A stretch of 64,000 nucleotides of DNA from Mobula hypostoma (lineage: Eukaryota), in the NCBI RefSeq assembly GCF_963921235.1, contig NC_086108.1, forward strand, positions 434,001-498,000, given 5' to 3'. Made by a program: the position numbers and the translations under genes. The notes under the pieces are model-generated. The model saw only the letters and a list, made by a program, of their open reading frames with translations, made no database searches and was not told where the DNA came from. Positions 2,020 to 57,626 of this stretch are shown piece after piece; the first letter of the stretch is position 1, and every line of letters begins with the position of its first letter.

Positions 2020-3480
2020 GGGCGGGTAGAAACAGGATGATTTGGTAAATTAATGTGTGACTGAAAAGCTGGTTCGGGAGCAGGGCTTCAAATTCATGGA
2101 TCATTAGAGTCTCTTCTGGGGGAGGCATGACCTGTTCAAAAGTGACGGGTTGCACCTGAACCTGAGGGGAGCCAATATTCTCTGGGGCAGGGTTGTTAGA
2201 GATGTTCGGGAGGCTTTAAACCAATTTGGCAGAGGGGTGGGAACCTGAATGAAAGGACTCAGGATAGCACCAATAGTAAAAAGCAAAGATAGTGTGCAGT
2301 CAGACTGTCAGGAAAGGCAGACAGATGATAGGATAGAATTGCAGCCAGCAGGGTGAGTATCAGGGTAGTAGGGATACAGAATCAATAGGAGTAGCCAATA
2401 CAGTACTCAAAGTGTTATATCTTAATGCATGGAGTATAAGAAATAAGATGGATGATCTTGTTGATCTATTACAGATTGTCAGGTATGATGTTGTGGCAAT
2501 CAGTGATTTGTAGCTGAAGGATAGTTGTAGTTGGGAGCTGAATGTCCAAGGTTACACGTTGTATCGGAAGGATAGGAAGGTAGGTAAATGGGCTGGCATG
2601 GCTCGGCTGGGAAAGAATGACATCAAATCAGTCAGAACTTGCGACTGATCTTGAATCCTTGTGGGTTGAGTTAAGAAACTGCAAGGGTAAAAGGACCCTA
2701 ATGGCAGTTATATACAGGTCTCCCAGTAGTAGCTGGGATGTGGACTATAGATTACAACAGGAAATAGAAAAAGGCATGTCAAAAGGGCAACATTATGATG
2801 GTCTTGAGAGATTTCAACATGGAGGTTAATTGGGAAAATCAGGTTGGAAATGGATCTCAAGAGAATAAGTTTGTTGAATGCTTAGTAGATAACTTTTTAG
2901 AACAGCTTGTCATTGAGCCTACTAGGGAATCAGCTATACTGGATTGGGTATTATGTAATGAACCAGGGGTGATTAGGGAACTTAAGGTAAAAGAACCCTT
3001 AGGATTGAGTTCAACTTGAAATTAGATAGGGAGCAAGTAAAATCTGACATAGCAGCATTTCAATGGAGTAAAGGAAATTACAATGGTATGACAGAGGAGT
3101 TGGCCAAAGTAAATTGGAAGGAGCTGCTGACAAGGATGACAGCAGAACAGCAATGGTGTGAGTTTCTGGGAAAGTGAGGAAGGTGTGGGATAGATGTATT
3201 CCAAAAATGAAGAAATGCTCAAATGGCAAAATAATACAACAATGGCTGACAAGGAAAGTCAAAGCTAATGTAAAATCAAAACAGAGGGCATACAACAAAG
3301 CAAAAATTAGCAGGAAGACAGAGGATTGGGAAGCTTTTAAAACCCTACAGAGAGCAACTAAAAGAATCATTAGGACAGAAAAGATGAAATATGAAAGCGA
3401 GCTAGCAAATAATATGAAAATGGATAGTAAAAGCTTTTACAAGTATTTAACAAATAAAAGAGAGATGAGAGTGGATGTAG
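2020..3480 (+). mobile_element. Degraded CR1 LINE: ORF1 esterase end, TTTAAAC junction, APE endonuclease
   Basis: DGLHLNLRG-like end of ORF1; WVELRNCKGKRTLMAVIYRSP; EPTRESAILDWVLCNE; TTTAAAC at 2215-2221. Confidence 0.85.
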
Positions 3481-5820: not shown

Positions 5821-5840
5821 CCCGCTGCTCCATAGTGGCC

Positions 5841-8800
5841 TTTACACTAGAATGGTTGGGGTGGTGGGAATCAAATTAAAGAGATGAGGAGAGAGGGGGT
5901 TAGTTCACAACAGGGGGATAGGAACAAGTGCAGAGAGACAGAGGGGGGTAAAATGAGAGTAGAAGCAAAAAGTAGTAAGGTGAAAAGTAAAAGTGGCAGG
6001 CCGGCAAATCCAGGGCAAAAATCAAAAAGGGCCACTTTTCAACATAATCATATTAGGGCTAAGAGTGTTGTAAAAGTGAGCCTGAAGGCTTTGTGTGTCA
6101 ATGCATGGAGCATTCATAATAAGGTGGATGAATTGAAAGTGCAGATTGTTATTAATGATTATGATATAGTTGGGATCACAGAGACATGGCTCCAGGGTGA
6201 CCAAGGATGGGAGCTCAACATTCAGGGATATTCAATATTCAGGAGGGATAGACATGAAGGAAGGGGAGGTGGGGTGGCGTTGCTGGTTAAGGATGAGATT
6301 AACGCAATAGAAAGGAAGGACATAAGCCGGGAAGATGTGGAATCGATATGGGTAGAGCTGCATAACACTAAGGGGCAGAAAACGCTGGTGGGAGTTGTGT
6401 ACAGGCCACCTAACAGTAGTAGTGAGGTCAGAGATGGTATTAAACAGGAAATTAGAAATGCGTGCAATAAAGGAACAGCAGTTATAATGGGTGACTTCAA
6501 TCTACATATAGATTGGGTGAACCAAATTGGTAAGGGTGCTGAGGAAGAGGATTTCTTGGAATGTATGCGGGATGGTTTTTTGAACCAACATGTCGAGGAA
6601 CCAACTGGAGAGCAGGCTATTCTAGACTGGGTATTGAGTAATGAGGAAGGGTTAATTAGCAATCTTGTCATGAGAGGCCCTTTGGGTAAGAGTGACCATA
6701 ATATGGTGGAATTCTTCATTAAGATGGAGAGTGACATAGTTAATTCAGAAACAAAGGTTCTGAACTTAGAGAAGGGTAACTTTGAAGGTATGAGACGTGA
6801 ATTAGCTAAGATAGACTGGCAAATGACACTTAAAGGATTGACGGTGGATATGCAATGGCAAGCATTTAAAGATGGCATGGATGAGCTACAACAATTGTTT
6901 ATCTCAGTTTGGCAAAAGAAAAATCAAGGAAGGTAGTGAACCCGTGGCTGACAAGGGAAATTAGGGATAGTATCAATTCCAAAGAAGAAGCATACAAATT
7001 AGCCAGAAAAAGTGGCTCACCTGAGGACTGGGAGAAATTCAGAGTTCAGCAGAGGAGGACAAAGGGCTTAATTAGGAAGGGGAAAAAAGATTGTGAGAGA
7101 AAACTGGGAGGGAATATAAAAACTGACTGTAAAAGCTTTTATAGATATGTAAAAAGGAAAAGACTGGTAAAGACAAAAGTAGGTCCCCTACAGACAGAAA
7201 CAGGTGAATTGATTATGGGGAGCAAGGACATGGCAGACCAATCGAATAACTACTTTGGTTTGTCTTCACGAAGGAGGACATAAATAATCTTCCAGAAATA
7301 GTAGGGGACAGAGGGTCCAGTGAGATGGAGGAACTGAGGGAAATACATGTTGGTAGGGAAGTGGTATTAGGTAAATTGAAGGGATTAAAGGCAGATACAT
7401 CCCCAGGGCCAGAAGGTCTGTATCCCAGAGTGCTTAAGGAAGTAGCCCAAGAAATAGTGGATGCATTAGCGATAATTTTTCAAAACTCTTTAGATTCTGG
7501 ACTAGTTCCTGAGGATTGGAGGGTGGCTAATGTAACCCCACTTTTTAAAAAAGGAGGGAGAGAGAAACCGGGGAATTATAGACCGGTTAGCCTAACGTCG
7601 GTGGTGGGGAAACTGCTGGAGTCAGTTATCAAAGATGTGATAACAGCACATTTGGAAAGCGGTGAAATGATCGGACAAAGTCAGCATGGATTTGTGAAAG
7701 GAAAATCATGTCTGACGAATCTCATAGAATTTTTTGAGGATGTAACTAGTAGAGTGGATAGGGGAGAACCAGTGAATGTGGTATATTTAGATTTTGAAAA
7801 GGCTTTTGACAAGGTCCCACACAGGAGATTAGTGTGCAAACTTAAAGCACACGGTGTTGGGGTTAAGGTATTGATGTGGATAGAGAATTGGTTGGCAGAC
7901 AGGAAGCAAAGAATGGGAATAAACGGGACCTTTTCAGAATGGCAGGCAGTGACTAGTGGGGTACCGCAAGGCTCAGTGCTGGGACCCCAGTTGTTTACAA
8001 AAGCGGTCCCCAACCACCGGGCCACGGAGCATGTGCTACCGGGCCGCGAGGAAACGATATGATTTGGCGATATGAGTCAGCTGCACCTTTCCTCATTCCT
8101 TGTCACGCCCACTGTTGAGCCTGAACGCACGCGAGGTCATTACGCACGCGACATCCATGTCAGCGCGGGAAGGAGATCAACTCCTCGAGCTTGCAAATGA
8201 TGGTAGGCTGAAAAGTATGTTTGACATAACGAAATTGAGTGTATTAGCCTCTTATCACCTATATTTCGGTCATGATTCACACCCCTGCGTTCCCCCCCCG
8301 ATCAGAATCGCCAAAAAGGATTTGTAGAAAAAAATTGGGAGGTACACGCATGCGCACTGTTGCCCGCGCAAGGCGTCATGGTCATTGTAGTCTTTCTCGG
8401 GGTAAACACAACGTATTTGACTGCTACTCTTATCCGTTGGCAACCCTAACCAACCCCACCTCCCCGGGTCGGCCGGTCCGCAAGAAAATTGTCAATATTA
8501 AACCGGTCCGCAATGCGAGAAAGGTTGGGGACCCCAGTTGTTTACACTATAAATTAATGACAGGTGAGGAAATTAAATGCAGCATCTCCAAGTTTGCGGA
8601 TGACACGAAGCTGGGCGGCAGTGTTAACTGTGAAGAGGATGCTAAGAGGATGCAGGGTGACTTGGATAGGTTAGGTGAGTGGGCAAATTCATGGCAGATG
8701 CAATTTAATGTGGATAAATGTGAAGTTATCCACTTTGGTGGCAAAAACAAGAAAACAGATTATTATCTGAATGGTGGCCGATTAGGAAAAGGGGAGGTGC

Positions 8801-9530
8801 AACGAGACCTGGGTGTCATTATACACCAGTCGTTGAAAGTGGGCATGCAGGTACAGCAGGCGGTGTAAAAGGCGAATGGTATGCTGGCATTTATAGCAAG
8901 AGGATTCGAGTACAGGAGCCGGGAGGTACTACTGCAGTTGTACAAGGCCTTGGTGAGACCACACCTGGAGTATTGTGTGTAGTTTTGGTCCCCTAATCGG
9001 AGGAAGGACATCCTTGCCTTAGAGGGAGTACAAAGAAGGTTCACCAGATTGATTCCTGGGATGGCAGGACTTTCATATGATGAAAGACTGGATCAACTAG
9101 GCTTATACTCGTTGGAATTTAGAAGATTGAGGGGGGATCTTATTGAAACGTATAAAATCCTAAAGGGATTGGACAGGCTAGATGCAGGAAGATTGTTCCC
9201 GATGTTGGGGAAGTCCAGAACGAGGGGCCACAGTTTGAGGATAGAGGGGAAGCCTTTTAGGACCGAGATTAGGAAAAACTTCTTCACACAGAGAGTGGTG
9301 AAACTGTGGAATTCTCTGCCACAGGAAACAGTTGAGGCCAGTTCATTGGCTATATTTAAGAGGGAGTTAGATATGGCCCTTGTGGCTAAAGGGATCAGTG
9401 GGTATGGAGGGAAGGCTGGTACAGGGTTCTGAGTTGGATGATCAGCCATGATCATACTGAATGGCGGTGCAGGCTCAAAGGCCCGAATGGCCTACTCCTG
9501 CACCTATTTTCTATGTTTCTATGTTTCTAT
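5841..9530 (+). mobile_element. CR1 LINE (subfamily A), 5'-truncated at the ORF1/ORF2 junction; APE and RT with a few lesions; contains a hAT insertion
   Basis: GITETW, MGDFN, SDHN, NYRPVSLTS, SGVPQGSVLGP and KFADD motifs; (CTATGTTT)n tail at about 9510-9530. Confidence 0.95.
8001..8537 (+). mobile_element. Internally deleted hAT (Charlie/Buster-like) DNA transposon
   Basis: Terminal inverted repeats GGTCCCCAACC / GGTTGGGGACC; internal DQLLELANDGRLKSMFD resembles a Buster-type transposase segment. Confidence 0.75.
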
Positions 9531-11326: not shown

Positions 11327-14300
11327 ACATAGAAACATAGAAACATAGAAAATAGGTGCAGGAGTAGGCCATTCGGCCCTTCGAGCCTGCACCGCCATTT
11401 ATTATGATCATGGCTGATCATCCAACTCAGAACCCCGCCCCAGCCTTCCCTCCATACCCCCTGACCCCCGTAGCCACAAGGGCCATATCTAACTCCCTCT
11501 TAAATATAGCCAATGAACTGGCCTCAACTGTTTCCTGTGGCAGAGAATTCCACAGTTTCACCACTCTCTGTGTGAAGAAGTTTTTCCTAATCTCGGTCCT
11601 AAAAGGCTTCCCCTCTATCCTCAAACTGTGGCCCCTCGTTCTGGACTTCCCTAACATCGGGAACAATCTTCCTGCATCTAGCCTGTCCAATCCCTTTAGG
11701 ATCTTATACGTTTCAATCAGATCCCCCCTCAATCTTCTAAATTCCAACGAGTACAAGCCCAGTTCATCCAGTCTTTCTTCATATGAAAGTCCTGCCATCC
11801 CAGGAATCAATCTGGTGAACCTTCTTTGTACTCCCTCTATGGCAAGGATGTCTTTCCTCAGATTAGGGGACCAAAACTGCACACAATACTCCAGGTGTGG
11901 TCTCACCAAGGCCTTGTACAACTGCAGTAGTACCTCCCTGCTCCTGTACTCGAATCCTCTCGCTATAAATGCCAGCATACCATTCGCCTTTTTCACCGCC
12001 TGCTGTACCTGCATGCCCACTTTCAATGACTGGTGTATAATGACACCCAGGTCGCGTTGCACCTCCCCTTTTCCTAATCGGCCACCATTAAGATAATAAT
12101 CTGTTTTCCTGTTTTTGCCACCAAAGTGGATAACTTCACATTTATCCACATTAAATTGCATCTGCCATGAATTTGCCCACTCACCCAACCTATCCAAGTC
12201 ACTCTGCATCCTCTTAGCATCTTCCTCACAGCTAACACTGCCACCCAGCTTCGTGTCATCCGCAAACTTGGAGATGCTGCATTTAATTCCCTCATCCAAG
12301 TCATTAATATATATTGTAAACAACTGGGGTCCCAGCACTGAGCCTTGTGGTACCCCACTAGTCACCGCCTGCCATTCTGAAAAGGTCCCGTTTATTCCCA
12401 CACTTTGTTTCCTGTCTGCTAACCAATTCTCCACCCACACCAACACCTTACCCCCAATACCGTGTGCTTTAAGTTTGCACACTAATCTCCTGTGTGGGAC
12501 CTTGTCAAAAGCCTTTTCAAAATCCAAATATACCACATCCACTGGTTCTCCCCTATCCACTCTACTAGTTACATCCTCAAAAAATTCTGAGATTCGTCAG
12601 ACATGATTTTCCTTTCACAAATCCATGCTGACTTTGTCCGATCATTTCACCGCTTTCCAAATGTGCTGTTATCACATCCTTGATAACTGACTCCAGCAGT
12701 TTCCCCACCACCGACGTTAGGCTAACCAGTCTATAATTCCCCGGTTTCTCTCTCTCTCCTTTTTTAAAAAGTGGAGTTGCATTAGCCACCCTCCAATCCT
12801 CAGGAACTAGTCCAGAATCTAACGAGTTTTGAAAAATTATCACTAATGCATCCACTATTTCTTGGGCTACTTCCTTAAGCACTCTAGGATGCAGACCATC
12901 TGGCCCTGGGGATTTATCTGCCTTCAATCCCTTCAATTTACCTAATACCACTTCCCTACTAACATGTATTTCGCTCAGTTCCTCCATCTCACTGGACCCT
13001 CTGTCCCCTACTATTTCTGGAAGATTATTTATGTCCTCCTTAGTGAAGACAGAACCAAAGTAATTATTCAATTGGTCTGCCATGTCCTTGCTCCCCATAA
13101 TCAATTCACCTGTTTCTGTCTGTAGGGGACCTACTTTTGTCTTTACCAGTCTTTTCCTTTTTACATATCTATAAAAGCTTTTACAGTCCGTTTTTATGTT
13201 CCCTGCCAGTTTTCTCTCATAATCTTTTTTCCCCTTCCTAATTAAGCCCTTTGTCCTCCTCTGCTGAACTCTGAATTTCTCCCAGTCCTCAGGTGACCCA
13301 CTTTCTCTGGCTAATTTGTATGCTTCTTCTTTGGAATTGATACTATCCCTAATTTCTCTTCTCAGCCACGGGTGCACTACCTTCCTTGATTTATTCTTTT
13401 GCCAAACTGGGATGAACAATTGTTGTAGTTCATCCATGCAACCTTTAAATGCTTGCCATTGCATATCCACCGTCAATCCTTTAAGTGTCATTTGCCAGTC
13501 TATCTTAGCTAATTCACGTCTCATACCTTCAAAGTTACCCCTCTTTAAGTTCAGAACCTTTGTTTCTGAATTAACTATGTCACTCACCATCTTAATGAAG
13601 AATTCCACCATATTATGGTCACTCTTACCCAAGGGGCCTCTCAGGACAAGATTGCTAATTAACCCTTCCTCATTGCTCAAAACCCAGTCCAGAATAGCCT
13701 GCTCTCTAGTTGGTTCCTCGACATGTTGGTTTAAAAAACCATCCCGCATACATTCCAAGAAATCCTCTTCCTCAGCACCTTTACCAATTTGGTTCACCCA
13801 ATCTACATGTAGATTGAAGTCACCCATTATAACTGCTGTTCCTTTATTGCACACATTTCTAATTTCCTGTTTAATACCATCTCCGACCTCACTACTACTG
13901 TTAGGTGGCCTGTACACAACTCCCACCAGCGTCTTCTGCCCCTTAGTGTTACGCAGCTCTACCCATATCAATTCCACATCTTCCCGGCTTATGTCCTTCC
14001 TTTCTATTGCGTTAATCTCTTCTTTAACCAGCAACGCCACCCCACCTCCCCTTCCTTCATGTCTATCCCTCCTGAATATTGAATATCCCTGAACGTTGAG
14101 CTCCCATCCCTGGTCACCCTGGAGCCATGTCTCTGTGATCCCAACTATATCATAATCATTAATAACAATTTGCACTTTCAATTCATCCACCTTATTACGA
14201 ATGCTCCTTGCATTGACACACAAAGCCTTCAGGCGCTCTTTTACAACTCTCTTAGCCCTTATACAATTATGTTGAAAAGTGGCCCTTTTTAATGCTTGCC

Positions 14301-15292
14301 CTGGATTTGTCGGCCTGCCACTTTTACTTTTCTCCTTTGTACTTTTTGCTTCTACCCTCACTTTACACCCCTCTGTCTCTCTGCACTGGTTCCCATCCCC
14401 CTGTTGTGAACTAACCTCCTCACGCCTAGCCTCTTTAATTTGATTCCCACCCCCCAACCATTCTAGTTTAAAGTCATCTCAGTAGCCCCCGCTAATCTCC
14501 CTGCCAGGATATTTGTCCCCCTAGGATTCAAGTGTAACCCGTCCTTTTTGTACAGGTCACGCCTGCGCCAAAAGAGGTCCCAATGATCCAAAAACTTGAA
14601 TCCCTGCCCCCTGCTCCAATCCCTCAGCCACGCATTTATCCTCCACCTCATCGCATTCCTACTCTCACTGTCGCGTGGCACAGGCAGCAATCCCGAGATT
14701 ACAACCTTTGCGGTCCTTTTTCTCAACTCCCTTCCTCGCTCCCTATATTCTCCTTTCAGGACCTCATCCCTTTTCCTACCTATGTCATTGGTACCTATAT
14801 GTACCACGACCTCTGGCTCCTCATCCTCTCACTTCAGGATATCTTGGACACGATCAGAAATATCCCGGACCCTGGCACCAGGGAGGCAAACTCCATCCGG
14901 GTCTCTGGACTGCGTCCACAGAATTGCCTATCTGACCCCCTTACTATTGAGTCCCCTATCACAACTGCCCTCCTCTTCCTTGCCCTACCCTTCTGAGCTA
15001 CAGGGCCAGACTCTGTGCCGGAGGCACGGCCACTGTCGTTTCCCCCGGGTAAGCTGTCCCCCCCAACAGTACTCAAACAGGAGTACCTGTTGTTAAGGGG
15101 CACAGCCACCGGGGTACTCCCTATTACCTGACTTTTCCCCTTCCCCCTCCTAACCGTGACCCACTTGTCTGCCTCCCGTAGCTTCGGCGTGACCACCTGC
15201 CTGCAACTCCTCTCTATCAACTCCTCACTCTCCCTGACCAGATGAAGGTCATTGAGCTGCAGCTCCAGTTCCGTAACGTGGTCCCTTAGGAG
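11327..15292 (-). mobile_element. Near full-length CR1 LINE (subfamily A): ORF1 SGNH esterase plus ORF2 APE-RT, one frameshift in each
   Basis: ORF1 motifs VVIGDSIVRG, HIGTND, DGLH; ORF2 segments of 626 aa and 377 aa; (CATAGAAA)n tail on + at 11327. Confidence 0.96.
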
Positions 15293-27416: not shown

Positions 27417-27736
27417 ATCTCAAGAGTGAGTTTGTTGAATGCCTACGAGATGGTTTTTAGAGCAGTTTTTCATTGAGCCTACCAGGGGATCAGTTATATT
27501 GGATTGGGTGTTATGTAATGAACCAGAGGTAGGCAGCCAGTGATTGAGTTCAGTTTGAAATTTAATAAGGAGAAAGTGAAGTCTGATGTAGCAGTATTTT
27601 AGTAGAGTAAAGGAAATTACATTGGTATGAGAAAGGAGTTGGACAAAGTAAACTGGAAGGCCATGCTGGCAGGGACGGCGGCAAAGCAATAATGGTGCGA
27701 GTTTCAGGGAAAACTGAGGGAGACGCTGGACAGGTG
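27417..27736 (+). mobile_element. CR1 endonuclease/linker fragment, target of the Gypsy insertion; resumes at 31807-31826
   Basis: EFVECLRDGF; ctggacaGGTG|...|GGTGtattccaaaaacaaag restores the CR1 DRCIPK sequence. Confidence 0.75.
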
Positions 27737-30700
27737 TGTAGCCCCCCAGGCCGCCCTCAGGGTCACTCGGCTCGCTGTCGTCTAGGGAAACAGCCTCGGC
27801 CCCGCCAAACTGGGTAATTCGTTTGTGTGGATGCTGTGTGATGTACCCCACCCCGCCCAAATAACAGACAATACACCGGATACGATTAAATGATGTACAG
27901 TTTATAGATGTTACTGGAACTATACAATTAAGAGAGAATAAAATATAAAAGGAAAATAAAAGGCGCCACACTTATCAGAGTTCAATCTCTTCGTGCACAA
28001 AACCATTGGAGCTCCAGGACCACCTTCTTCACCCTGCGACCCCTCGGACCACCTCGACCGGCCGCCTGGGACCAACAACGGTGGTCGACCAGACGCTCCA
28101 ACGAGTCCGTGTCCGTCTCCTCGCCAAACGCCCTCCTCGGGGTCCGACCCTGTTTGCGGACATCACAGCACCTGGTCCATCCTCTGTCTCACTCTCCCGC
28201 TTCTGCCCCAAAACCCCGCACATACAGTATCTTCAAATACACCAAAACCATAACAACGATCCCAATTGGTTAATAGCACTCTCTTATCACACTCTAAAAT
28301 AAAACAAGCTGCTAGCGCAAACTTTCTCAGCGTTTAACACAACAAAGCGGCATTCCCCAGATTAACATAACAAAGACGCCATTTTAATTAGCTTCCGCAG
28401 TAACATAAAAGACGAAACCCCCTTACACTCTCCCCCCACCAAATAAAGTCATGTCCTCATGACTTCTAATTAACTCGCCACCCAGTCCTACAGACACACA
28501 ACACACACATACACAGATACACACAGTGACAGTGCTCCCCAAACAGTGGACCTTACTCACGTCCCACGGGCGGTAAATAGGCCAACCTATCTGGGATTGA
28601 GACCTCCGTACCCCCTCACCTAAACCCAAAAGGCTCAGACACTACTAGGGATACATCGGGCCTGTTTGCCAACTCCTCTCTCACTCAGGCCAGCACTACA
28701 GCTCGGAGCCCCCAGTCCTGTGTCCGGGGCCCCGCCTCTCCTCCTTCCCAATCCTGCCGCAACTCAGACTGCCCACAGCTAGCCCTCCCCACTACACCTG
28801 ACTCAGTGGGAGAAGGGCCAAAGGTCTCTTCCTCAATCACAGGGAAGTTAGCGAAAGGCAGCATGTTCCACATGTGCAGCACATCATCCTTCGAATCCGT
28901 ATCCTTCCTCATTCCCTCGATCGATAGCTGCTGGTTAAGTTTCTCCAAACTGAAACATTAAGCCGGGGCTACCCCTTCAGTCTCCTGCAGTCGAGACGTC
29001 AGCTTCTTCGGGGACGACTTCAACTCTCGCCACAGCCTCAGCAGTTCTGACTCAGGGTTTCTGGCCATCTCAATCTGGGACGCAGTTACCCCACCAGCTT
29101 CTTCCACCCTGACCTGAAAAGCAGCAGATAAAGAATGTTCAGCCTCCGGTTGTTTCTTCCTCAGGACGTCTTCCAGGTCAACGTTCAGTTTTTCCACATC
29201 ATTTAAACTCGCGATAGTCATCTTCAGGTTCCTTTCAAGCGTCTGCCTCCCTTTTCCAAGATCTGTCCTCCATTTGTTTACCTCCTCGGGAGTGTAGTCA
29301 AACTCCCCTCCCTGGGCTCTCGGTTTTCTGTTGACCTTAGTCAGAACACTTCCATGATCTTCCCCAACTTGCAAGTCTTCCAATCTGTTCTGAATGGACG
29401 TCTTGAGTTTCTGCTGATCCCTTCGAAGGTGGGTCATTGTTTCTTCTCGCTGGATTAATTCGTCAGTATATGACCGCAGTGCGGTGCAAATCTCCTCTCT
29501 TCCCTGTGTCTCATTCAGATTGACGACCTGGGTTTCCATCCCCCGGTCCACCACCGTCTGTCCCAACACCAGGAAGTTCAACTGGTATGTCGGGTCATTT
29601 TCCTCACATTGCACCAAACTCCTCCGGCCAAAAACTCCTCCACATTTGACACTTCGCTTCGGTCGCCCGGGCTCAGCCACTCGCCTCGCCTCATAGTCCC
29701 CCCGGGCGAATCCAAGCTCTAGGCGGTCATCCACATACGTCAAAACTCCACACACCTTCACTTCCCCCATGGTCTTCCTCATGCCCCGCAGGAAGGATGC
29801 AGGGGCTCCGGATATGCCCTTGGGCATCTTTTCGGATCGGAAGAATCCTAGGGAACTAGTAACGGCCATCTTCAGCTCAACAGCCGCACTCCTCAGGATC
29901 TGGCAACGTCCACCTCTCAGATGCAGCACATTAAACCACATCGCATCATCCACGCACACGCTGCCTTCCTCTTCCACGCCCCTAGGGTCCAGTTGCCGCG
30001 ACCTCTCTCTCACTGAGGTGTCTTCAGCGGTCAACTCCCCTCCCTCGTGGTAGTTCAGAGCATCTACTAAGAGGGTCTCACCCTCAGCTACTTTCCCCAG
30101 GACGTACCACCGCTGGGTCTCGTTTAAATTCGGTACCGGCTCAAGGCTGCTTCACACGTCCTCAGAAGCAACTCGACACACTGGGTGCCCAGAAAATGCC
30201 CCCATGAACTCCAGGGTCATTAACCAATCATCGTCTTCTGTATAACTACTGCCACGAGTACCCAAAGTCTCCGGTGCCCTTGCGGTTGTCAAGGGTAAAT
30301 GCTTCAGACACCGGTTGTAAAATGAACTGTACAACAACTTGATCTGTGCCCTGGGGTCGAGGATAGCTTTAGCATTGCTTCCCTCTATCCATAACAACAC
30401 CCTGGGGAGTGGTCCCTCTAGCCTTCAGGAATAGGGTCTTTTCCTTTCGGAAGTTCATTGGTACATTGCTGGGAACGTGCTTCCCCAGAGACCCCAAGCC
30501 GTTCCCCCACTGGGCCTCCACTAAGTTTCCCGACACCTCTCTGATCAGCTGCACAACTGATCCCCTGAAATGATCCCCCTGTCACTGCAAGCAATTTAGC
30601 CGCCCTCCTAGCCAGAGAAGACACACTGAAAACTTTCCCCCCTCTTTCAAATAACTGACAGCTGTCACTACGGTGTAAGTGAACATGACAGCTCTAACAC

Positions 30701-31806
30701 CGTCACCAGCCCGCCTACTCAAACTTTCAACCGATCCCTGTCGCTCTCCCTCAACCGAGCACTGCCACTCATCTAACAACTGAGAGATCCGCTCCGCCCA
30801 CGTCTCGCACGCCTCCGCCCCTCTTGGGGTGGACACTATCCCAAACGCCAGGTGGAGCCTGCCAGAGCTAGAACATTTATTCGCAGACTCTACCTCCAAA
30901 TCAGACCACTCTTTCCTCTCTCTCCCAACTGCATGGACAGCCCCGAGTGCCACCTCCAACTCGTCAATGCCAGCCCGAACTCGAACAAAGACCTCACCCA
31001 CAACACATACAGCAATCACCAGCAAATAACCCACAGAGACACACATTACAGATTTAAACAGGGTACCCACACAGCATACCAACAGACTCAAGCATCCCGG
31101 ACAAGCCCCCACAATGTAGCCCCCCTGGCCACCCTCAGGGTCGCTTGGCTCGCTGTCGTCTAGGGAAACAGCCTCGGCCCCGCCAAACTGGATAATTCTT
31201 TTGTGTGGATGCTGTGTGATGTACCCCACCCTGCCCAAATAACAGACAATACACCAGATGCAATTAAATGATGTACAGTTTATAGATATTACTGGAACTA
31301 TACAATTAAGAGAGAATAAAATATAAAAGGAAAATAAAAGGCACCACACTTATCAAAGTTTAATCTCTTCATGCACAAAACAGTTGGAACTCAAGGACCT
31401 TCTTCACACTGCGACCCCTCGGACCACCTCGACCGGCCGCCTGGGACCACCAATGGTGGTCGACCAGACGCTCCACACGAGTCCATCTCCGTCTCCTCGC
31501 CGAACGCCCTCCTCGGGGTGTCCGACCCTGTTCGCGGACATCACAGCACCTGGTCCATCCTCTGTCTCGCTCTCCCACCTTCTGCCCCAAAACCCCGCAC
31601 ATACAGTATCTTCAAATACACCAAAACCATAACAACGATCCCAATTGGTTAATAGCACTCTCTTATCACACTCTAAATTAAAACAAGCTGCTAGCGCAAA
31701 CTTTCTCAGCGTTTAACACAACAAAGCCGCATTCCCCAGATTAACATAACAAAGACGCCATTTTAATTAGCCTCCGCAGTAACATAAAAATCGAAACTCC
31801 CTTACA
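27737..31806 (-). mobile_element. Non-autonomous Gypsy-type LTR retrotransposon with captured myosin rod sequence
   Basis: Near-identical TG...CA LTRs at 27737-28427 and 31115-31806; 4-bp TSD GGTG; PBS at 31094-31111 TGGGGGCTTGTCCGGGAT (tRNA-Pro type); PPT at about 28428-28440; degenerate gag ([25 protein letters not shown]), protease (AILDPRAQI) and RT (GFFRSEKMPKGISGAPASF, YVDD). Confidence 0.93.
28915..29500 (-). pseudogene. Captured intronless sarcomeric myosin heavy chain rod fragments (MYH16-like)
   Basis: LEDLQVGEDHGSVLTK, LKMTIASLNDVEKLNVDLEDVLRKK, RVEEAGGVTASQIEM...ESELLRLWREL and KKLTSRLQETE...CFSLEK match successive myosin II rod motifs. Confidence 0.8.
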
Positions 31807-31828: not shown

Positions 31829-32980
31829 AGGGCCCACAACGGGCCCCACAATTTGGACGCGGCCACAATGACCCCACGGACAGTGGAAACCGCATCCCAA
31901 AGGGGAGAGGGGAACAGACCCTCCACCTCCAGGGATGGCTTCTGGGTCAGCCGTGACCGGACCCGTATCACACCCGAGCCCCAGAAAAAGACCGCTCAGG
32001 CTGCACCCCGTCCGTCGGCGACGAGTAAAATGAACTTGAGTCCGGTAATTGTGCTGCGGGACTGTCTCAGACCAACAGGTCCTGAGAACAACACGTGTAG
32101 TGGGAGTTCCGGCACCGTCCACGGGAGGGCGCTGGAGCTAGTTAACCCACTCGACGCCGATGCGGCCCCACTGCCCCAGTCACAGGAACAGAGAAGACGC
32201 TGGGTGAGCCCCTCGGAGAAGACGCAATCCAACCCAGGAGCAGGGCCCCAGCCTGCCGCTCCCACGGCCTCCCTGACCCAAGACTCTGAGGAATCAGCAC
32301 CCCACCCCACACCAGTGCGGATGGGCACACAGACAAGGGGAGCCAGTACATGAGGACCGAGCAAGTCTTCCACCCCAGGGAACCACACAGCCCGAGAGTC
32401 GGAGGACATGGGACAAACAAGAGGACAGGTAACCCCTATTTGCAACAACCAGGAGGGTCAAATAACGAGGCATCCTCACTCTAAACAGAAAAATGTAACT
32501 TGGAAACTAAGGCCCCTTAAACCTATACTAATTATAGAGAACTCTAACATTTCCAGGATTAAAAGATGCCCGAATAAGGATGTTCAATTGGACAGCTTTC
32601 CGGGAGCCAAATTCACCCATGTCACTGCTATCCTGACAAAGTTAGAACCACAACTGGAAACTAAGAAGGTTATCCCTTCCTTTGGAATAAACGATAGGTC
32701 ACATCAATCAGCAACAGTGACGAAACAGCTTCAGCAATTATTAAGAATGGCCCATATTAAATTTCCCAATGCCAGTATCTGGGTGCCAGAGCTGAACCTT
32801 AGCCACTGTTTGACAGAGGCAGAACAAGCAACCCTGGGCCAACTAAATGAGGTTATTAGAACTAAGAATTATATCCCTGCAATCTTGGTGAGGCAGTTTA
32901 AGGTAGACACAGACCACATCCATTGGACAGGAAACACAGCCCTGACCGTAGTCAAGAGGTGGATGCAGTCTTTAACCTAG
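31829..32980 (+). CDS. Penelope upstream ORF: disordered region plus SGNH hydrolase-like domain (one in-frame TGA at 32351-32353)
   Basis: ORFs 31808..32353 and 32408..32980 share one frame; SGNH blocks IIENSNI (degenerate GDS), SFPGA, SFGIND, DHIH. Confidence 0.7.
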
Positions 32981-35189
32981 AGTGGAGACAAAGCCGAGAG
33001 AGGCAGGGTCCACCACTGGGAGAGACCATCGTGAACCTCTCCCGTACATTCATCCCTACAGAAACCCAGCAAAAGGTTCTGAACAGGGGCCTCACTTTTG
33101 TCCCGACTGCAAAACTCCATAAGGAGCAGATAGAGGGGGACATGGATAAGTTCTACAAGAGAGTGGTACTCGTCGACTTCTTTGGGGAGTCAGAACGTAG
33201 AAAGACCCCTTTCACCCCTCCCTCAGACTGGATGCCCAAGAGGAGGTACAGGCCAGAAGCAGTCCTACAATTTGAGAGCACACTGAATGAGATAATGGAG
33301 AGGGAGAGAGAGGTACAGGATAAACCCAATTTAACCAGGAAGGAGAGAGCAGCCCTGAAGGAGTTGAGGGAAAATATGGATATTGTTATCAAACCAGCAG
33401 ATAAAGGGAGCAGCATAGTGATCATGGGCAAACAGCAATATCTATTTGAGGCACACAGACAATTAAACAACACGGAGCACTACACTAAACTAAAGGAACC
33501 TATATACTGGGAAACACACACAGAAATCAGGAACATTCTGCGAGAACTAGAAAGGACTAGATACCTCGGGAAGAAGCAGGTGGAGTACCTGACAGGGATA
33601 CAGCCACGAGCAAGAAAGTTCTATATCCTCCCCAAAATACACAAGAACCCAGACTCATGGACTGTTCTGGGAGAAATACCACCCGACAGGCCCATCGTGT
33701 CGGACTGCGGCAGTGAATCATACAGGATAGCAGAATACATTGATGCCTTCCTTAACCCACTATCGCAGAAACACTCCAGCTACGTCAAGGACAAGTACCA
33801 CTTTGTCTGGATAGTCAATTCCATGTCAGTGCCCCCTGAGGCCATACTCGTCACCATGGACATTGAAAGCCTGTACACCAATATAGAAACAGACAGGAGT
33901 ATAGAGGCAGTGAGGGATATCCTTCGGGAGAACCCTCAGCTTGAGAGACCAGACGAGGCCTTGATAGAACTCCTTCACCTCAGCCTAACTAAAAATGACT
34001 TTGAATTAAATAATGAATTCTATTTACAAGTCAAGGGCACAGCGATGGGAAAGAAGTTTGCTCCAGCCTATGCCAATATATACATGGCAAAATGGGAGGA
34101 AATAGTTTATCCAAAGTGTCCCAAAAAACCCATGTGTCTCTATAGATACCTGGATGACATCTGAGGAGTGTGGACGCACTCGGAGGTAGAATTAGAGGAA
34201 TTTATTCAAATCCTAAACACTCATCATCCATCCATTAAGGTTAAGGCCGCAACAGATAGGGAGAAAATTGACTTCGGTACTTCGGAAAATTCACTACGGT
34301 ATTTAAACAAGCACCAGAAAATGGCAGCCAGAAACTAGCCACCAAAGCATTCTTTAAAACCACAGACACACACACCCTCCTACACACCGGGAGCCACCAT
34401 CCCAAACACACCTTCAGAGGCATTGTCAAAGGACAGCTGACCCGGTTTCACCGCATTTGCACCAGGGCAGAGGACTTCCACCAAGCCACTACTATCCTCT
34501 TCTCTGCACTTAGACACAGGGGCTACAGCAGACGGAGACTCAGACACATCAAATCTAACTTTTTAAAAAGTATCACAAATCCCCGACCACGGGACAACAC
34601 AACACGAAAACTACCCTTGATAACAGGATACAGTGGGATGGCAGTGAATATCCACAAGAGAGTTAAAACACACTTTGAAGAGCTAAAAGCAGAAGGGGGG
34701 ACACTGGGACAATACACCATAGTCTCAGCCTTCAAAAGGGGTAGAAACTTAAAAGACATACTAGTCACTACCAAAGTACAAACAGCGCCAAACTGCAAGG
34801 TGGGAAACTGCAGGGCGTGCATATACATACAAATTTCAAAAAGCATACACAACAGAGTTACAGGGAAGTGGGCTGAGATAGAGCAGAGGATAACTTGCGA
34901 ACAAAAGAATGTAGTATATGCAATCCAGTGTAAACAATGCCATATTATATACATAGGGGAGACGGGCAACAGCCTGAGAACCAGACTCACAGGACACCTC
35001 AGTAATATCACAAGAGGAAACCAAAACAGACCAGTTAGCAGGCACTTTCTGGAGCATGGAATGTATTCCTTAGCAATCCTGGGCCTGGAAACCAACATAA
35101 ACTGGTCAAACCTCCAAAGAAAAAGAGCAGAGAGGAGATGGATTGAAAGACTACAGATATATTCCCCAAATGGCCTAAACGAGGCCTAA
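32971..35189 (+). pseudogene. Penelope RT-GIY-YIG ORF, disrupted by a TGA after YLDDI and a frameshift near 34280
   Basis: ORFs 32923..34164 and 34617..35189 plus the intervening thumb region (TDTHTLLHTGSHHPKHTFRGIVKGQLTRFHRIC). Confidence 0.9.
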
Positions 35190-44916: not shown

Positions 44917-47900
44917 AAGACTGGTGCAAAATACTTATGCAGTTCATCCGCCATTTCCTTGCCCCCCCCCCCCCATTACTACCTCTCTGGCATCATTTTC
45001 CAGTGGTCCGACATCTAACTTTTAATATGAATATCCTCTTTAATATTATTGGCTAGCTAACCTTCCTATCCCATCTTCTCCTTCTTTATGACTTATTTAG
45101 TTGCCTTTGTTGGTTTTTAAAAGTTTCCCAAACTTCCCAAAAACTTTTGCCCCCTCTTTGATTTTTATGTTGGCTATAACTTCTCTCGTCAGCCACGGTT
45201 GTGTCATCCTGCCTTTAAAACACTTCTTCCCCTTTGAGATGTATTTATCCTGTACCTTCCAAATGGCTCCCTGAAATTCCAGCTATTGGTACGCTGCCAT
45301 AATCCCTGCCAATGTTCTTTTCCAATCAATTTTGGTCAGCTCCCCTATCATGCCTCTGTAATTCCCTTTACTCCGTTGTAATATTGATATATGTGTCTTT
45401 AGCTTCTCCTTCTCAAATTGCAAGGTGAATTCTGCCGTATTATGATCACTTATCCCTAGTGGTTCTTTTACCTTGAGGTACTTAATCAATTCTGGTTCAT
45501 TACACAACAACTAATCCAGAATAGCTAATCCATCTAGTGGGCTCAACCACACGCAGCTCTTAAAGGCCATCTTGTAGGCATCCCAGAAATTCCCCATCTT
45601 GGGATCCAGCACCAACCTGATTTTCCTATTCAACCTGAATGTTGAAATCCCCCATGACTATCATAACATTACCCTTTGGCATGCATTTTGTATTTCCCAT
45701 TGTAATTTGTAGACCATATCTTTACTACTGTTTGGGTGTATGCATATATTTCCCATCAGGGTCTTTTTATCCTTACAGTTCCTTAATTCTACCCACAGCA
45801 ATTCAACGCCTTCTGAGGTTAAGCCACCTCTTTCTAATGACTTGATTTCATATTTTACCAACAGAGCCACACCACCCTTTCTGCCTTCCTGTATGTCCTT
45901 TCAATACAATATGTATCCTTGGACGTTAAGCTGCCAGCTATAATCTTCTTTCAGCCACATTCAGTGATATCTACAATGTCATACATCCCTATCTGTAAAT
46001 CTGCTACCAGTTCATCGCCCTTATTCCGTATACTGCATGCATTCAAATATAACACCTTCAGTCCTCTATTCACTCTTTTAGATTTTGTCCCCCTTCTACA
46101 TTGCAACTCATCCTGTTATTTGCAATTTTGCCTTTTCATCAGCCTGTCCTTGCTAGGAGTCTCACTACACACTACCTCATCCTCAGCACTATCACTCAAG
46201 TTCTCATCCCCTTGCCAAACTAGCTTAAACCCTCCTGAACAGTTCTAGCAAACCTACCCGCAAGGACATTGGTCCCCCTTGCGTTCAGGTGTAACATGTG
46301 CCTTTGTACAAGTCATACCTTCCCCAGAAGTGATCCCAATGATTCATAAATTTGATCCCCTACCCCCTGCACTAGTGCCTCAGCCTTGTATTCACCCGTC
46401 AAATTATCCTATTCTTACCTTTATTGGCGCGTGTCACATGCAGCATTCCAGAGAGTACTACCCTAGACGTCCTGTTTCTCAGCTTTCTACCTAGCTCCAT
46501 AAAATCTGCCTTCAGGACCTTCTCACTCCTACCTATGTCATTGGTGCAAATGTGTACCAGGACTTCTGGCTGCTCACCCTCCTCCTTTCGACTACCATGG
46601 ATCCAATCCGAGACATCCCTAAGCCTGGCACCTGGGAAGCAACATACCATCTGGGTGTCTCTATCATGCCCACAGAATGTCGGCTCTGTTCCTCTGACGA
46701 TGGAATTTCCGATACCCACTGTAGTGCTCTTCACCTCTCTTCTCTTCTGAGGCACAGTACCAGACTCAGAGCCAGTGCAGCCATCCCCCTCAGCAGTATC
46801 CAAAGTGGTTTCATTATTATTGTGGGCATGGCCTCAGGGTACAGTGCAATTCTCCTCCTCCTGTCAGTCACCCTGCTACCTGTCTCCTGAAACTTAGTGA
46901 TGACTACCTCCTTGTAACTACTATTTATCACCCCCTCATTCTTCTGTATGAGCCGAAGGTCACTGAGCTGTGGCTCCAGTTTCTTAACACATTCTCTGAG
47001 AAGCTGCAGTTCAGTGCACCTGTTGCAGATGCATTTATCCGGGAGAATGGAGGTTTTACAGAACTCCCACATCTCACACAAAGCACAAAACACTGCTCCT
47101 GGAGCCATTCTTGCCAAACAACTATGCCCTAACAAATGAGGAATGAAGAGTTAAAAAAAGAGAAACTTACTAGACTTATCTTGCCCAAGCCTGATGATCC
47201 AAAGCTACACCAAACAATGGTACATTCACAACGAGGGCCACTCTGCTTGTTCCATTTGCCCTTTCTAATGAATCCCACGTAGTCACTGGTTGCAGTCCAA
47301 CTCTGAAAAACCTTGATTCACTCTTCACCTATTTTTACTGATTACAATCAGTTCAAATGAATGGTGTTAACCTGAGCATCCCCCTCAACCTCCCTGATCA
47401 GGGTCATGTGAATCCATGGGAGCAGGTGGTGAATGGTCGTATGATCACAAGTCCTGTTCATGTGACCGTGGACGCCAGACAGACAATCTCTGAAGAGTAT
47501 TGATTATGGCTGGGGTCACCTGTCTTGTAAAGGCACTGCCTAGAAGAAGGCAATGGCAAACTACTTCTGTAGAAACATTTGCCAAGAACAACCGTGGTCA
47601 AGGAGAAACCACGATCACCCACATCATACGACACGGCACATCACGAACAAACAGATTTATCTGGCAGTGCATTCCATGCACTGTCTGTTTGTGAATATGC
47701 CTCTTATCTAGTCACCTTTAGATTATGACCCCTCATATTAGCAATTTCCATCCTCGGGAAAAGTCTCTTGCTGTCCACTGTATCTCTGCCTCTCGCCTTG
47801 TATACATCTATCAAGTCACACCTCACCCTAAAGAGGAAAGTTCTAGCTCACTCAACCAACCCTCGTAAAGCTAGGAGCCTCATAGCCCCAGATCCCAGTG

Positions 47901-49264: not shown

Positions 49265-52200
49265 CAAGCACGTGAAGGTCGGCCTGTGAACAGCGGGAGA
49301 GTTTAAAAAGCGAGCTGATTAAGAAGGGGAAGGTCATTTCTTCGGCAGTTTGAACGGGGCACAACTGTGCAAGCGCATGAAGTTCTGCTTGTGAGACAGC
49401 GGGAGAGTTTAAAAAGCGAGCAGATTAACGGAGCGGGCGACGGAGTAGTGGGAGACAGAATAGAAAGGCTTTGGCTCGAGGGGCTTCGGCGAGCAGAGGC
49501 TGAGGACGAGCTTGTTCCCAGTGAGGTAAGGCCGGGTAAGTTCCTTTAATTAATCAAATTAACATAGAAGTAGGTAATGGAGGCAGCAGTCAGAGCAGTC
49601 GAGTGCTCTGTTTCCAGTATGTGGGAAGTCAGGGTGGGCAGAATTGTCCCTGATGACTACACCTGTAAAAGGTGCATCCAGCTGCAGCTCCTGACAAACT
49701 GAGTTAGGGAACTGGAGCTGGATCTGGATGAACTTCAGATCATTCGGGAGGCAGAGGCAGAAATAGACAGGAGTTTTAGGGAGACAGTCACCCCTAAGAG
49801 TCAGGAGACAGGTAGCTGGGTGACTGTGAGGAGAGGGAAGGGGAATAGATAGAATGAGCAGAGCACCCATGTGGCCGTTCCCACAGTACATAAGTACATC
49901 GTTTTGGATACTGTTGTTGGGGACGACCTACCAGGGACAAGTTGCAGTGGTTGCGTCTCTGGCACCGAGACTGGACCCTCAGCTCAGAAGGGAAAGAGGG
50001 AAAAGTGGAGAGCAGAAGTGATAGGGGATTTGATAGTTAGGGGGACAGATAAGAGGTTCTGTGGGAGAGATCGAGAATCCCGGATGGTCTGTTGCCTCCC
50101 TGGTGCCAGAGTCTGTGATATCTCGGATCGAGTTCTCAGTATTCTCAGAAGGGAGGGTGAGCAGCCAGATGTCGTGGTCCATGTAGGGACCAATGACGTG
50201 GGTAGGAAGAGTGAGGAGGTTCCGCAAAGAGAGTTCAGGGAGTTAGGTGCAAAGTTGAAGGACAGGACCTCCAGGGTTGCAATCTCAGGATTGCTACCCG
50301 TGCCACGTGCTAGTGAGGATAGAAATAGGAAGATAATGCAGCTAAATACGTGGCTAAGGAGTTGGTGCAGGAGGGAGGGCTTCATGTTTCTGGACAATTG
50401 GGCTTTGATCCAGGGAAGGTGGGACCTGTTCCGACAGGACGGATTGCACCTGAACTGGAGGGGGATTAACATCCTTGCGGGAAGGTTTGCTAGTGCTGCT
50501 CCAGGGGGGTTTAAACTAGATTTACAGGGGGAGGGGAACCAGAGTGTTAGAGCAGATAGTGAGGTGGAGGAGGATAAAGGTCATGCGAGAACTGCAAGTA
50601 TAGTGCATGGAGTAAAGCCACGTCCAATATATAAAGAGGCTTTGAGGAAAGAGAAGCAGAATAAATGGTGTAAAGGTAGTAAGGTAGAAAGGCGAAAGTG
50701 CGTGTACTTCAATGCAAGAAGCATCAGGAACAAAGGTGATGAACTGAGAGCTTGGATACATACATGGAATTATGATGTAGTGGCCATTACAGAGACTTGG
50801 CTGGCACCAGGGCAGGAATGGATTCTCAATATTCCTGGATTTCAGTGCTTTAAAAGGGATAGAGAGGGCGGAAAAAGGGGAGGAGGGGTGGCATTACTGG
50901 TCAGGGATACTATTGCAGCTACAGAAAGGGTGGGTAATGTAGCAGGATGCTCTTTTGAGTCAGTATAGGTGGAAGTCAGGAACAGGAAGGGAGCAAATAC
51001 TCTATTGGGGGTATTCTATAGGCCCCCTGGTAGCAGCAGAGATACCAAGGAGCAGATTGGGAGGCAGATTTTGGAAAGGCGCAAAAATAACAGGGTTATT
51101 ATCATGGGTGACTTTAACTTCCATAATATTAATTGGCACCTGATTAGTTCCAATTGTTTAGATGGGGCAGAGTTTGTTAAGTGTGTCCAGGACAGATTTC
51201 TGTCACAGTATGTTGACAGGCCGACTAGGGGGAATGCCATACTAGATCTAGTACTAGGTAATGAACCAGGTCAGGTCACAGATCTCTCAGTGGGTGAGCA
51301 TCTGGGAGACAGTGACCACTGCTCCCTGGCCTTTAACATCTCTTGCAGGATGTTAGGGATAAATTTGTCCCAGTGAGGAAGATAAAGAATGGTAGGGTGA
51401 AGGAACCATGGGTGACAAGTGAGGTGGAAAATCTAGTCAGGTGGAAGAAGGCAGCATACATGAGGTTTAGGAAGCAAGGATCAGATGGGTCTATTGAGGA
51501 ATATAGGGTAGCAAGAAAGGAGCTTAAGAAGGGGCTGAGAAGAGCAAGAATGGGGCATGAGAAGGCCTTGGCGAGTAGGGTAAAGGAAAACTCCAAGGCA
51601 TTCTTCAATTATGTGAAGAACAAAAGGATGACAGGAGTGAAAGTAGGACCGATTAGAGATAAAGGTGGGAAGATGTGCCTGGAGGCTGTGAAAGTGAGCG
51701 AGGTCCTCAATGAATACTTCTCTTCGGTATTCACCAATGAGAGGGAACTTGATAATGGTGAGGACAATATGAGTGAGGCTGATGTTCTGGAGCATGCTAA
51801 TATTAAGAGAGAGGAGGTGTTGGAGTTGTTAAAATACATTAGGACGGATAAGTCCCCGGGGCCTGACGGAATATTCCCCAGGCTGCTCCACGAGGCGAAG
51901 GAAGAGATTGCTGAGCCTCTGGCTAGGATCTTTATGTCCTCGTTGTCCACGGGAATGGTACCAGAGGATTGGAAGGAAGCGAGTGTTGTCCCCTTGTTCA
52001 AAAAAGGTAGCGGGGATAGTCCGGGTAGTTATAGACCAGTGAGCCTTACACCTATGGTGGGAAAGCTGTTGGAAAAGATTCTTAGAGATAGGACCTATGG
52101 GCATTTAGAGAATCATGGTCTGATCAGGGACAGTCAGCATGGCTTTGTGAAGGGCAGATCATGTCTAACAAGCCTGATAGAGTTCTTTGAGGAGGTGACC

Positions 52201-56800: not shown

Positions 56801-57626
56801 CCTTATACAATTATGTTGAAAAGTGGCCCTTTTTAATGCTTGCCCTGGATTTGTTGGCCTGTCACTTTTACTTTTCTCCTTAGTACTTTTTGTTTCTACC
56901 CTCACTTTACACCCCTCTGTCTCTCTGCACTGGTTCCCATCCCCCTGTTGTGAACTAACCTCCTCACACCTAGCCTCTTTAATTTGATTCCCACCCCCCA
57001 ACCACTCTAGTTTAAAGTCATCTCAGTAGCCCCCGCTAATCTCCCTGCCAGGATATTGGTCCCCCTAGGATTCAAGTGTAACCCGTTCTTTTTGTACAGG
57101 TCACGCCTGTGCCAAAAGAGGTCCCAATGATCCAAAAACTTGAATCCCTGCCCCCTGCTCCAATCCCTCAGCCACGCATTTATCCTCCACCTCATCGCAT
57201 TCCTACTCTCACTGTCGCGTGGCACAGGCAGTAATCCCGAGATTACTACCTTTGCGGTCCTTTTTCTCAACTCCCTTCCTAGCTCCCTATATTCTCCTTT
57301 CAGGACCTCATCCCTTTTCCTACCTATGTCATTGGTACCTATATGTACCACGATCTCTGGCTCCTCACTCTCCCACTTCAGGATATCTTGGACACGATCA
57401 GAAATATCCTGGACCCTGGCACCAGGGAGGCAAACTACCATCTGGGTCTCTGGACTGCGTCCACAGAATCGCCTATCTGACTCCCTTACTATCGAGTCCC
57501 CTATCACAACTGCCCTCCTCTTCCTTGCCCTACCCTTCTGAGCTACAGGACCAGACTCTGTGCCAGAGGCACGGCCACTGTCGCTTCCCCCGGGTAAGCT
57601 GTCCCCCCCAACAGTACTCAAACAGT
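53873..57626 (-). mobile_element. CR1 LINE (subfamily A), ORF1 esterase and ORF2, inserted in a Rex1/Babar 3' tail
   Basis: Near-identical to 11327-15292; Rex-type sequence on both sides (53520-53870 and 57627-57670 ...ctgattctga). Confidence 0.95.

Follow-up and report, generated by a model that had tools for sequence, protein, structure and literature searches.

In retroviruses, gypsy-type LTR elements and coronaviruses, a heptamer of the type X_XXY_YYZ (U_UUA_AAC in IBV) lies in the upstream frame and the ORF coding for the enzyme follows in the -1 frame without an AUG (searched part of PMC5009743). U_UUA_AAC, A_AAA_AAC and G_GGA_AAC are listed there among the heptamers on which mammalian ribosomes shift most readily (Atkins, 2016, PMC5009743). 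The same part of this review states that the HeT-A gag needs a shift, and the term CR1 was not found in it.

For the Dictyostelium elements TRE5-A and TRE3-A, a -1 frameshift is needed for ORF2 according to a figure legend of a review (PMC5911963). SART1 and L1 also have a bicistronic LINE RNA and translate ORF2p as a protein of its own, starting at an AUG that overlaps the stop or lies close to it, SART1 by UAAUG coupling and L1 by termination-reinitiation (searched part of PMC5972666). Furthermore, in some Penelope-like elements ORF1 is set off by a frameshift together with a pseudoknot, as stated in the legend to Fig. 1 of PMC8557442, which leaves the type of element and the site unspecified.

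In most vertebrates, elements of the CR1 group dominate among the retrotransposons, as described in the searched part of PMC13343379. How canonical CR1 makes its ORF2p is not stated in the searchable papers. The word "frameshift" is absent from the searched main texts of PMC13343379, PMC4120745, PMC3905857 and PMC2734521 (in the last, "frame-shift" denotes mutations), and "overlap" is absent from those of PMC13343379 and PMC4120745, so that a recoding signal is not described there. In the open full-text literature, a body to which subscription papers, the first CR1 descriptions and the Repbase reports do not belong, no paper was found whose title or opening of the abstract describes -1 frameshifting in CR1.

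Here, we describe the junction of ORF1 and ORF2 in CR1 elements from a window of 64,000 nucleotides of Mobula hypostoma. These elements are like the retroviral and coronaviral systems in the heptamer and in the frame of the enzyme ORF. In contrast to these systems, they are non-LTR elements, the stop codon follows directly on the heptamer, local folding found no significant hairpin, and a G tract is present after 10 nt. TRE5-A and TRE3-A are alike with respect to the -1 position of ORF2, but belong to another clade and host kingdom and have another ORF1. It is probable, as judged from the conservation described below, that CR1 elements with an esterase ORF1 make ORF2p by programmed -1 frameshifting, which would result in an ORF1-ORF2 fusion.

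CR1 elements of the window

The window is repeat-rich vertebrate DNA. The elements at the sites studied consist of an ORF1 with an SGNH esterase, an ORF2 with endonuclease and reverse transcriptase (APE-RT), and a (TTTCTATG)3 tail. Within ORF1, a Cys motif or coiled coil is combined with the esterase, which in the sister copy of subfamily A matches PF13472 (Lipase_GDSL_2) with an E value of 4e-16. In ORF2, the APE endonuclease precedes the reverse transcriptase, and the Pfam matches are PF03372, PF14529 and PF00078. The (TTTCTATG)3 repeat forms the 3' end of both subfamily-A copies, which carry these short octamer repeats and no poly(A). We take this octamer tail, (TTTCTATG) x3, to be of the type typical of CR1.

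This is the canonical CR1 anatomy with an esterase ORF1; the class is assigned from the anatomy, the only tree being that of the esterases, which separates these elements from the ZfL2-1-type clade. ORF1 with zinc finger or coiled coil and SGNH esterase, APE-RT ORF2 and octamer tail are all shared with the canonical vertebrate CR1 (type IVB) of the searched parts of PMC4120745 and PMC13343379, which places them in the same family, and consensi with the label CR1 in the searched part of the PMC13343379 supplement have a matching junction. The closest homolog of ORF1 is a Mobula hypostoma protein with 94% identity. The features are given in Table 1.

Table 1. Features of the CR1 elements and of a Penelope-like element in the window (positions within the window).
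Feature	Position	Strand	Basis
Remnant of ORF1, CR1 subfamily A, with coiled-coil region and SGNH/GDSL esterase; ends Leu-Asn-stop	14463..15292	-	tblastn with P0001
Putative slippery heptamer T TTA AAC (U_UUA_AAC) in the ORF1 frame	14466..14472	-	sequence
ORF1 stop TAG directly 3' of the heptamer (TAA/TGA in other species)	14463..14465	-	sequence, consensi
TGA closing the ORF2 (-1) frame, two codons 5' of the heptamer	14479..14481	-	frame scan
Candidate stimulator: G tract (G6-T-G3) behind a spacer of 10 nt	14446..14455	-	G4Hunter 1.48; same place in consensi
Linker of 86 codons in the -1 frame, heptamer to APE start motif; stop-free, Met-free, fast-evolving	14215..14472	-	
First in-frame ORF2 ATG (codon 215), just before GDFN, deep in the endonuclease	13825..13827	-	
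ORF2 (APE endonuclease and RT); a frameshift near 12580-12596 breaks this copy	11427..14478	-	
Octamer tail (TTTCTATG) x3, 3' end	11328..11351	-	
Heptamer and TAG, second subfamily-A copy (element 53873-57633)	57007..57016	-	
Subfamily B junction: G run, heptamer, TAG; one extra base in this copy	50504..50519	+	
Subfamily C junction: TTTAAGC (heptamer, one change), then TAG; a stop 5 codons upstream closes the -1 frame	46220..46229	-	
Subfamily D junction: heptamer intact, stop reads CAA, decayed copy	2215..2224	+	
5' truncation point of a subfamily-A copy, falls on the heptamer	5840..5850	+	alignment starts at 5840
Penelope-like element junction T TTA ACC TAG	32971..32980	+	esterase-like ORF 32354-32980, -1 RT ORF 32902-34164, GIY-YIG 34272-35189

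The heptamer at the ORF1/ORF2 junction

The original prediction named six sites at which the heptamer, twice with one change, occurs across subfamilies, and all six strings are present at these coordinates. They represent four independent subfamilies, three with the exact heptamer and one with a single change, but three of the six sites carry caveats. The predicted layout, ORF1 ending in xxT TTA AAC TAG with ORF2 in the -1 frame, is found at 14466-14472 (-) and 57010-57016 (-), but not at 50510, where the two ORFs are fused, nor at 2215, where the stop reads CAA. The copies at 14466 and 57010 belong to one subfamily (A) with 97.6% DNA identity, and the ORF1 remnant of the former has one internal frameshift near 14840-14891 that concerns this copy. 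The site at 46223-46229 (-) represents another subfamily (C) and reads TTTAAGC. The site at 5841-5847 (+) marks the 5' end of a subfamily-A copy that is truncated, and therefore does not count as a junction of its own. This copy (5840-9530, +) carries an insertion of about 530 bases at 8000-8530 in the RT region. Its truncation falls exactly on the heptamer at 5840, and the consensi ScyCan_CR1-1b and -14 also start at or inside the heptamer; such truncations could reflect chance, trimming or a preferred break point.

At 50510-50516 (+), an extra base precedes the heptamer, ORF1 lacks a stop there, and one fused frame extends over 49853-50968. A natural single-ORF family was considered for this copy and rejected, since the family has one base fewer and thereby the ordinary two-frame layout. 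This was seen in the sequencing runs X1 and X5, which gave 3445 and 3205 contigs of subfamily B, in the consensi of loose contig ends (208 and 205 contigs) as well as in a 1-base gap (32 and 25 contigs); X1 is possibly the source sample, and X9 and X13 gave one uninformative contig each. Within the contigs of X1 and X5, no letter at 50506-50520 varies at 8% or more, compared with about 30 variants in the flanks, a comparison in which alignment seeding may favour conserved stretches.

TTTAAAC itself is not enriched in the whole window (16 seen, 14.5 expected). Therefore, the signal is the position of the heptamer, which has a probability of about 1e-4 per site.

The -1 frame opens two codons upstream of the heptamer in subfamily A and five codons upstream in C and D. 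From there it runs through a linker of 86, 67 and 62 codons in A, B and C, respectively, and reaches the APE motif in frame in every one. At 14215..14472, the -1 frame has no stop compared with 6 and 8 in the other two frames, and for A and B together the comparison is 0 versus 4-10; the decayed linker of subfamily C has one stop in the -1 frame versus 7 and 12 in the others. Compared with the copy at 5840, the linker of subfamily A shows 15 nonsynonymous and 3 synonymous changes, and the APE region 11 and 10. This dN/dS comparison of the linker does not support an amino-acid constraint.

A scan of the ORF2 frame revealed no in-frame ATG before the NARS motif in A or B. The first Met of ORF2 was predicted about 210 codons after a TTG and inside the endonuclease. 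It is codon 215 counted from the heptamer in both A copies, which equals 210 after the TTG, and codon 198 in the copy at 50510, in both cases downstream of the NARS (codon 86/67) and TETW (112/93) motifs. An ATG inside GGGGGATGGG was rejected as the start of ORF2, since it reads in the ORF1 frame. The start FKLEW given for ORF2 stands as a conceptual -1 translation, but a tandem slip would yield Leu-Asn followed by Leu-Glu-Trp.

A second, overlapping site of the slippery type, G_GGU_UUA, is possible just 5' of U_UUA_AAC where ORF1 ends in Glu/Gly-Gly-Leu-Asn. This overlap is present at C (46223-46233, -) and in the layout of the B family (50504-50516, +).

Conservation in published consensus DNA

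The searched part of the PMC13343379 supplement contains about 1000 CR1-group consensi; the counts below cover the first 400 nt of each, and the junctions were judged by eye. TTTAAAC followed by a stop gave 23 matches, 18 of them at ORF1 ends, from 12 species: halosaur (labelled Crack), alligator, bowfin, bullfrog, chimaera, crocodile, coelacanth, sawfish, dogfish, stingray, catshark and bearded dragon. Synonymous variation of the heptamer, which would speak against the original prediction, was sought with 15 synonymous variants (part of the full set), and none of their 26 matches lies at a CR1 junction; all 18 junctions keep T TTA AAC. Anchoring the search at the G tract instead gave 10 junctions among the 21 listed of 43 places, the heptamer being present in each wherever the sequence is shown, one being cut by the start of the consensus and one having a garbled stop.

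The stop next to the heptamer is TAG in 11 of the 18 junctions, TAA in six and TGA in one. Invariant synonymous letters next to a stop that is free to vary are expected of a slippery site. As judged from these consensi, the heptamer is conserved beyond the need of the amino acids. As a separate observation, SquAca_CR1-3 and -18 from the same supplement contain a second GTTTAAACTA motif in the 5' UTR, upstream of the start of ORF1.

The identity of the stop also bears on a change of frame at the level of the RNA, either via a splice acceptor at CTAG or by slippage of the polymerase in a G run, followed by ordinary translation. CTAG resembles a 3' splice site, and subfamily B has a run of about seven G before the heptamer, the length of which varies, with proteins containing an extra Gly. 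However, the AG is missing at the seven junctions with TAA or TGA, a G run before the heptamer is absent from subfamily A, and the G tract that is conserved is found past the stop. Moreover, an RNA altered by splicing or slippage would give rise to new copies by retrotransposition, yet the two frames persist in the family. Such a change of the RNA appears to be the least probable explanation, and programmed frameshifting on the ribosome accounts for the junctions far better.

More weight has to be given to termination-reinitiation, in which the ribosome, after finishing ORF1, would begin anew in the -1 frame, either at a UAAUG overlap as in SART1 or at a near-cognate codon as in L1; the conserved letters and the G tract would then serve as a signal for reinitiation, and ORF2p would not be linked to ORF1p. 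The claim that ORF2 has no AUG stands for all window copies, where overlapping or near stop-start motifs (UAAUG, AUGA) with an AUG in the ORF2 frame are absent, but three of the 18 consensus junctions, all from sharks (ScyCan_CR1-1a, SquAca_CR1-17a and -6c), have TAATG, its ATG being in frame with ORF2. This makes reinitiation conceivable for some families, and a mixed state of frameshifting and AUG restart is possible in some shark families. SART1 uses UAAUG plus a downstream structure and L1 an unconventional reinitiation (searched part of PMC5972666), and in L1 the AUG of ORF2 can be replaced by any sense codon (searched part of PMC1965478). Near-cognate TTG or CTG codons are present 4-10 codons past the heptamer in the subfamilies of the window, TTG being codon 5 in subfamily A. 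Against this, the other 15 consensus junctions, like the window copies, have no such AUG, and the near-cognate codons are found at differing positions. Furthermore, reinitiation leaves unexplained the canonical in-frame slippery heptamer as well as the apparent switches to Gly-Asn and Lys-Asn described below. As a general explanation it is therefore considered unlikely in comparison to a -1 frameshift.

Conservation in ORF1 protein tails

On the protein level, the heptamer corresponds to a terminal Leu-Asn (LN), which was found in 54 of the 61 homologs of the first search that reach the last helix. The pooled set comprises 258 proteins, of which 191 reach the helix and 182 have tails of up to 45 residues, the other 76 being left out; here, 113 tails end in LN and nine in GN. 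Among 99 distinct tails of 26 residues, L25 and N26 are each present in 93, and the most frequent residue at position 24 in at most 26. Carriers of LN include rays, sharks, chimaera, Latimeria, Xenopus, turtles, Hirundo (swallow), the lizards Zootoca and Varanus, and an eel. Since the LN proteins of vertebrates form one clade, this points to long retention and not to independent origins.

Directly before LN, 14 different residues occur, yet in 103 of 104 tails this residue has a codon ending in T, which the heptamer requires. At the two positions ahead of it, where Glu, Gln and Lys are frequent, this holds for 51/104 and 66/104, and at a buried control position for 98. As a further control, 87 distinct tails of bacterial SGNH proteins with a DGLHLN motif, taken from 138 loci with bacterial-type SGNH genes, contain no LN end, four ends of the slippery type and no heptamer. 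In the ZfL2-1-type clade, which matches the esterase 4C1B, none of nine ends is slippery.

These data also allow weighing whether ORF1p needs Leu-Asn-COOH for its own function, as the end of the last helix or as a binding or degradation signal. The heptamer would then be a by-product, and ORF2 would be made from an internal start or a subgenomic RNA. The Leu does fit the amphipathic character of the last helix, bacterial SGNH tails often end in Leu as well (AL 12 and SL 6 of 87), and the Asn is kept across LN, GN, EN and SN endings. Such a need leaves the fixed TTA and AAC codons and the preceding T unexplained, the distance of LN from the DGLH motif is 25, 26, 32, 36 or 39 residues, and the ZfL2-1 esterase (PDB 4C1B) folds without an LN end. 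An AUG start at codon 215 would also lose the first half of the endonuclease. This makes a purely protein-level origin of the ending very improbable, and a constraint by -1 frameshifting remains the preferred reading of the conserved tail.

Three CR1 ORF1 esterases (P0018, P0082 and P0073) have records assigned to Pseudomonas aeruginosa, Proteus mirabilis and a flatworm parasitic in frogs, which probably represent host contamination; CR1 DNA was sought in viral, metagenome and prokaryote collections and none was found. A weak search for fused ORF1-ORF2 proteins (603-2000 aa, 8000 candidates scored) gave six matches, none of which is an esterase-APE-RT protein by its Pfam list.

Candidate stimulator

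A G-rich tract close downstream had been predicted, and in subfamily A it begins 11 nt past the end of the heptamer. More generally, a G5-6-N1-2-G3-4 tract lies about 8-11 nt past the heptamer in the window copies and in most consensi, and G4Hunter scores of the window CR1 copies are 0.9-1.5. Local folding of 60-160 nt revealed no significant hairpin 3' of the CR1 sites (z -1.8 to +2.3), and a scan for long-range duplexes gave no conserved distant partner for the G tract. Given this result of the local folding, the most likely candidate for a stimulator is the adjacent slow stop in combination with the tract 10 nt downstream, which may act as G-quadruplex or as a protein-binding site. In the searched part of PMC5009743, synthetic G-quadruplexes are reported to stimulate shifting, their natural use being "not currently known but anticipated" in 2016, and in PEMV the shift needs a nearby stop, whatever the identity of this stop.

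Proposed mechanism and its implications

The position and frame of the heptamer, the conservation of its synonymous letters, the open Met-free linker and the closure of the -1 frame just upstream are observed; from these, we infer the slip, the fusion protein and the stimulator. The majority of ribosomes would read ORF1 and halt at the codon after UUA AAC, yielding ORF1p. A minority would slip back by one base on U_UUA_AAC, the P site being occupied by Leu-tRNA and the A site by Asn-tRNA, and would then continue in the ORF2 frame and synthesize ORF1p-linker-APE-RT as a single chain in gag-pol style. Such frameshifting would set a high ratio of ORF1p to ORF2p and tie the enzyme to the coiled-coil/esterase protein.

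The original prediction of a programmed -1 frameshift is thus supported, the evidence being comparative in nature. Points that speak against it are the negative result of the hairpin and duplex scans, the unconstrained linker, the near-cognate codons past the heptamer, the three TAATG junctions and the frequent final Leu of bacterial SGNH tails. The feature is real and deeply conserved, and most likely represents a known kind of recoding in a family for which no description of it was found. CR1 recoding most likely works like the -1 frameshifting of retroviral gag-pol, a likeness that covers the heptamer and the frame.

If this is true, the CR1 enzyme is made as one protein with ORF1p (ORF1p-ORF2p), in contrast to the L1 model that is generally applied to LINEs, and a membrane-binding esterase would be physically joined to the reverse transcriptase. 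Models of ORF2 that begin at the first Met would then be truncated inside the endonuclease. It would further mean that a frameshift signal without an obvious pseudoknot has been kept across jawed vertebrates and is open to study.

Relatives with other endings and a Penelope-like element

The esterase tree was calculated from 94 thinned cores with the tails left out. Here, the sister group mixes the endings GN, KN, EN and LN at 25-39 residues. Seven of the nine GN endings read Gln-Gly-Asn, and Gln precedes LN in 0/104; KN is present at position 27 in six relatives, and all GN and KN endings have a compatible preceding residue. GN fits G_GGA_AAC and KN fits A_AAA_AAC, and these apparent switches of the slippery class are deduced from the protein ends. 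An FF/FL ending class was dropped as evidence, since its labels extended over a span of 10 positions and dipeptides of the slippery type make up 4.2% of positions.

The window also contains a Penelope-like element (32354-35189, +), the RT ORF of which lies in the -1 frame with its first Met at codon 57. Its junction matches that of CR1-A in 15 of 16 bases. By blastp, its ORF1 has no detectable similarity to that of CR1 (E 0.3). Four homologs were found, and the three complete ones all end in Leu-Asn-x-stop; therefore, the site is probably one change off the CR1 heptamer. With its esterase-like ORF1, the -1 RT ORF and the near-identical heptamer-stop, the element is similar to the Penelope-like elements with an ORF1 set off by a frameshift (PMC8557442) and to the esterase-bearing Neptune-like elements in the searched parts of PMC5408684 and PMC3905857. 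A text tying the frameshift of Penelope-like elements to an esterase ORF1 was not found in the literature searched, and the supplement of PMC8557442 gave no relevant match.

A tentative and rather doubtful extension would be that the esterase ORF1 travels between classes of retroelements (vertebrate CR1, the sister lineage and Penelope-like elements) together with a terminal -1 frameshift cassette, switching between U_UUA_AAC, G_GGA_AAC, A_AAA_AAC and possibly U_UUU_UUN. Here, the shift of vertebrate CR1 would be driven by the adjacent stop and the G tract, as G-quadruplex or protein-binding stimulator, and not by a pseudoknot.

Finally, an ORF of 397 codons without a Pfam match is present in the window at 28958-30151 (-), and its flanks at 27420-27971 and 30582-31349 are similar to each other and possibly LTR-like.
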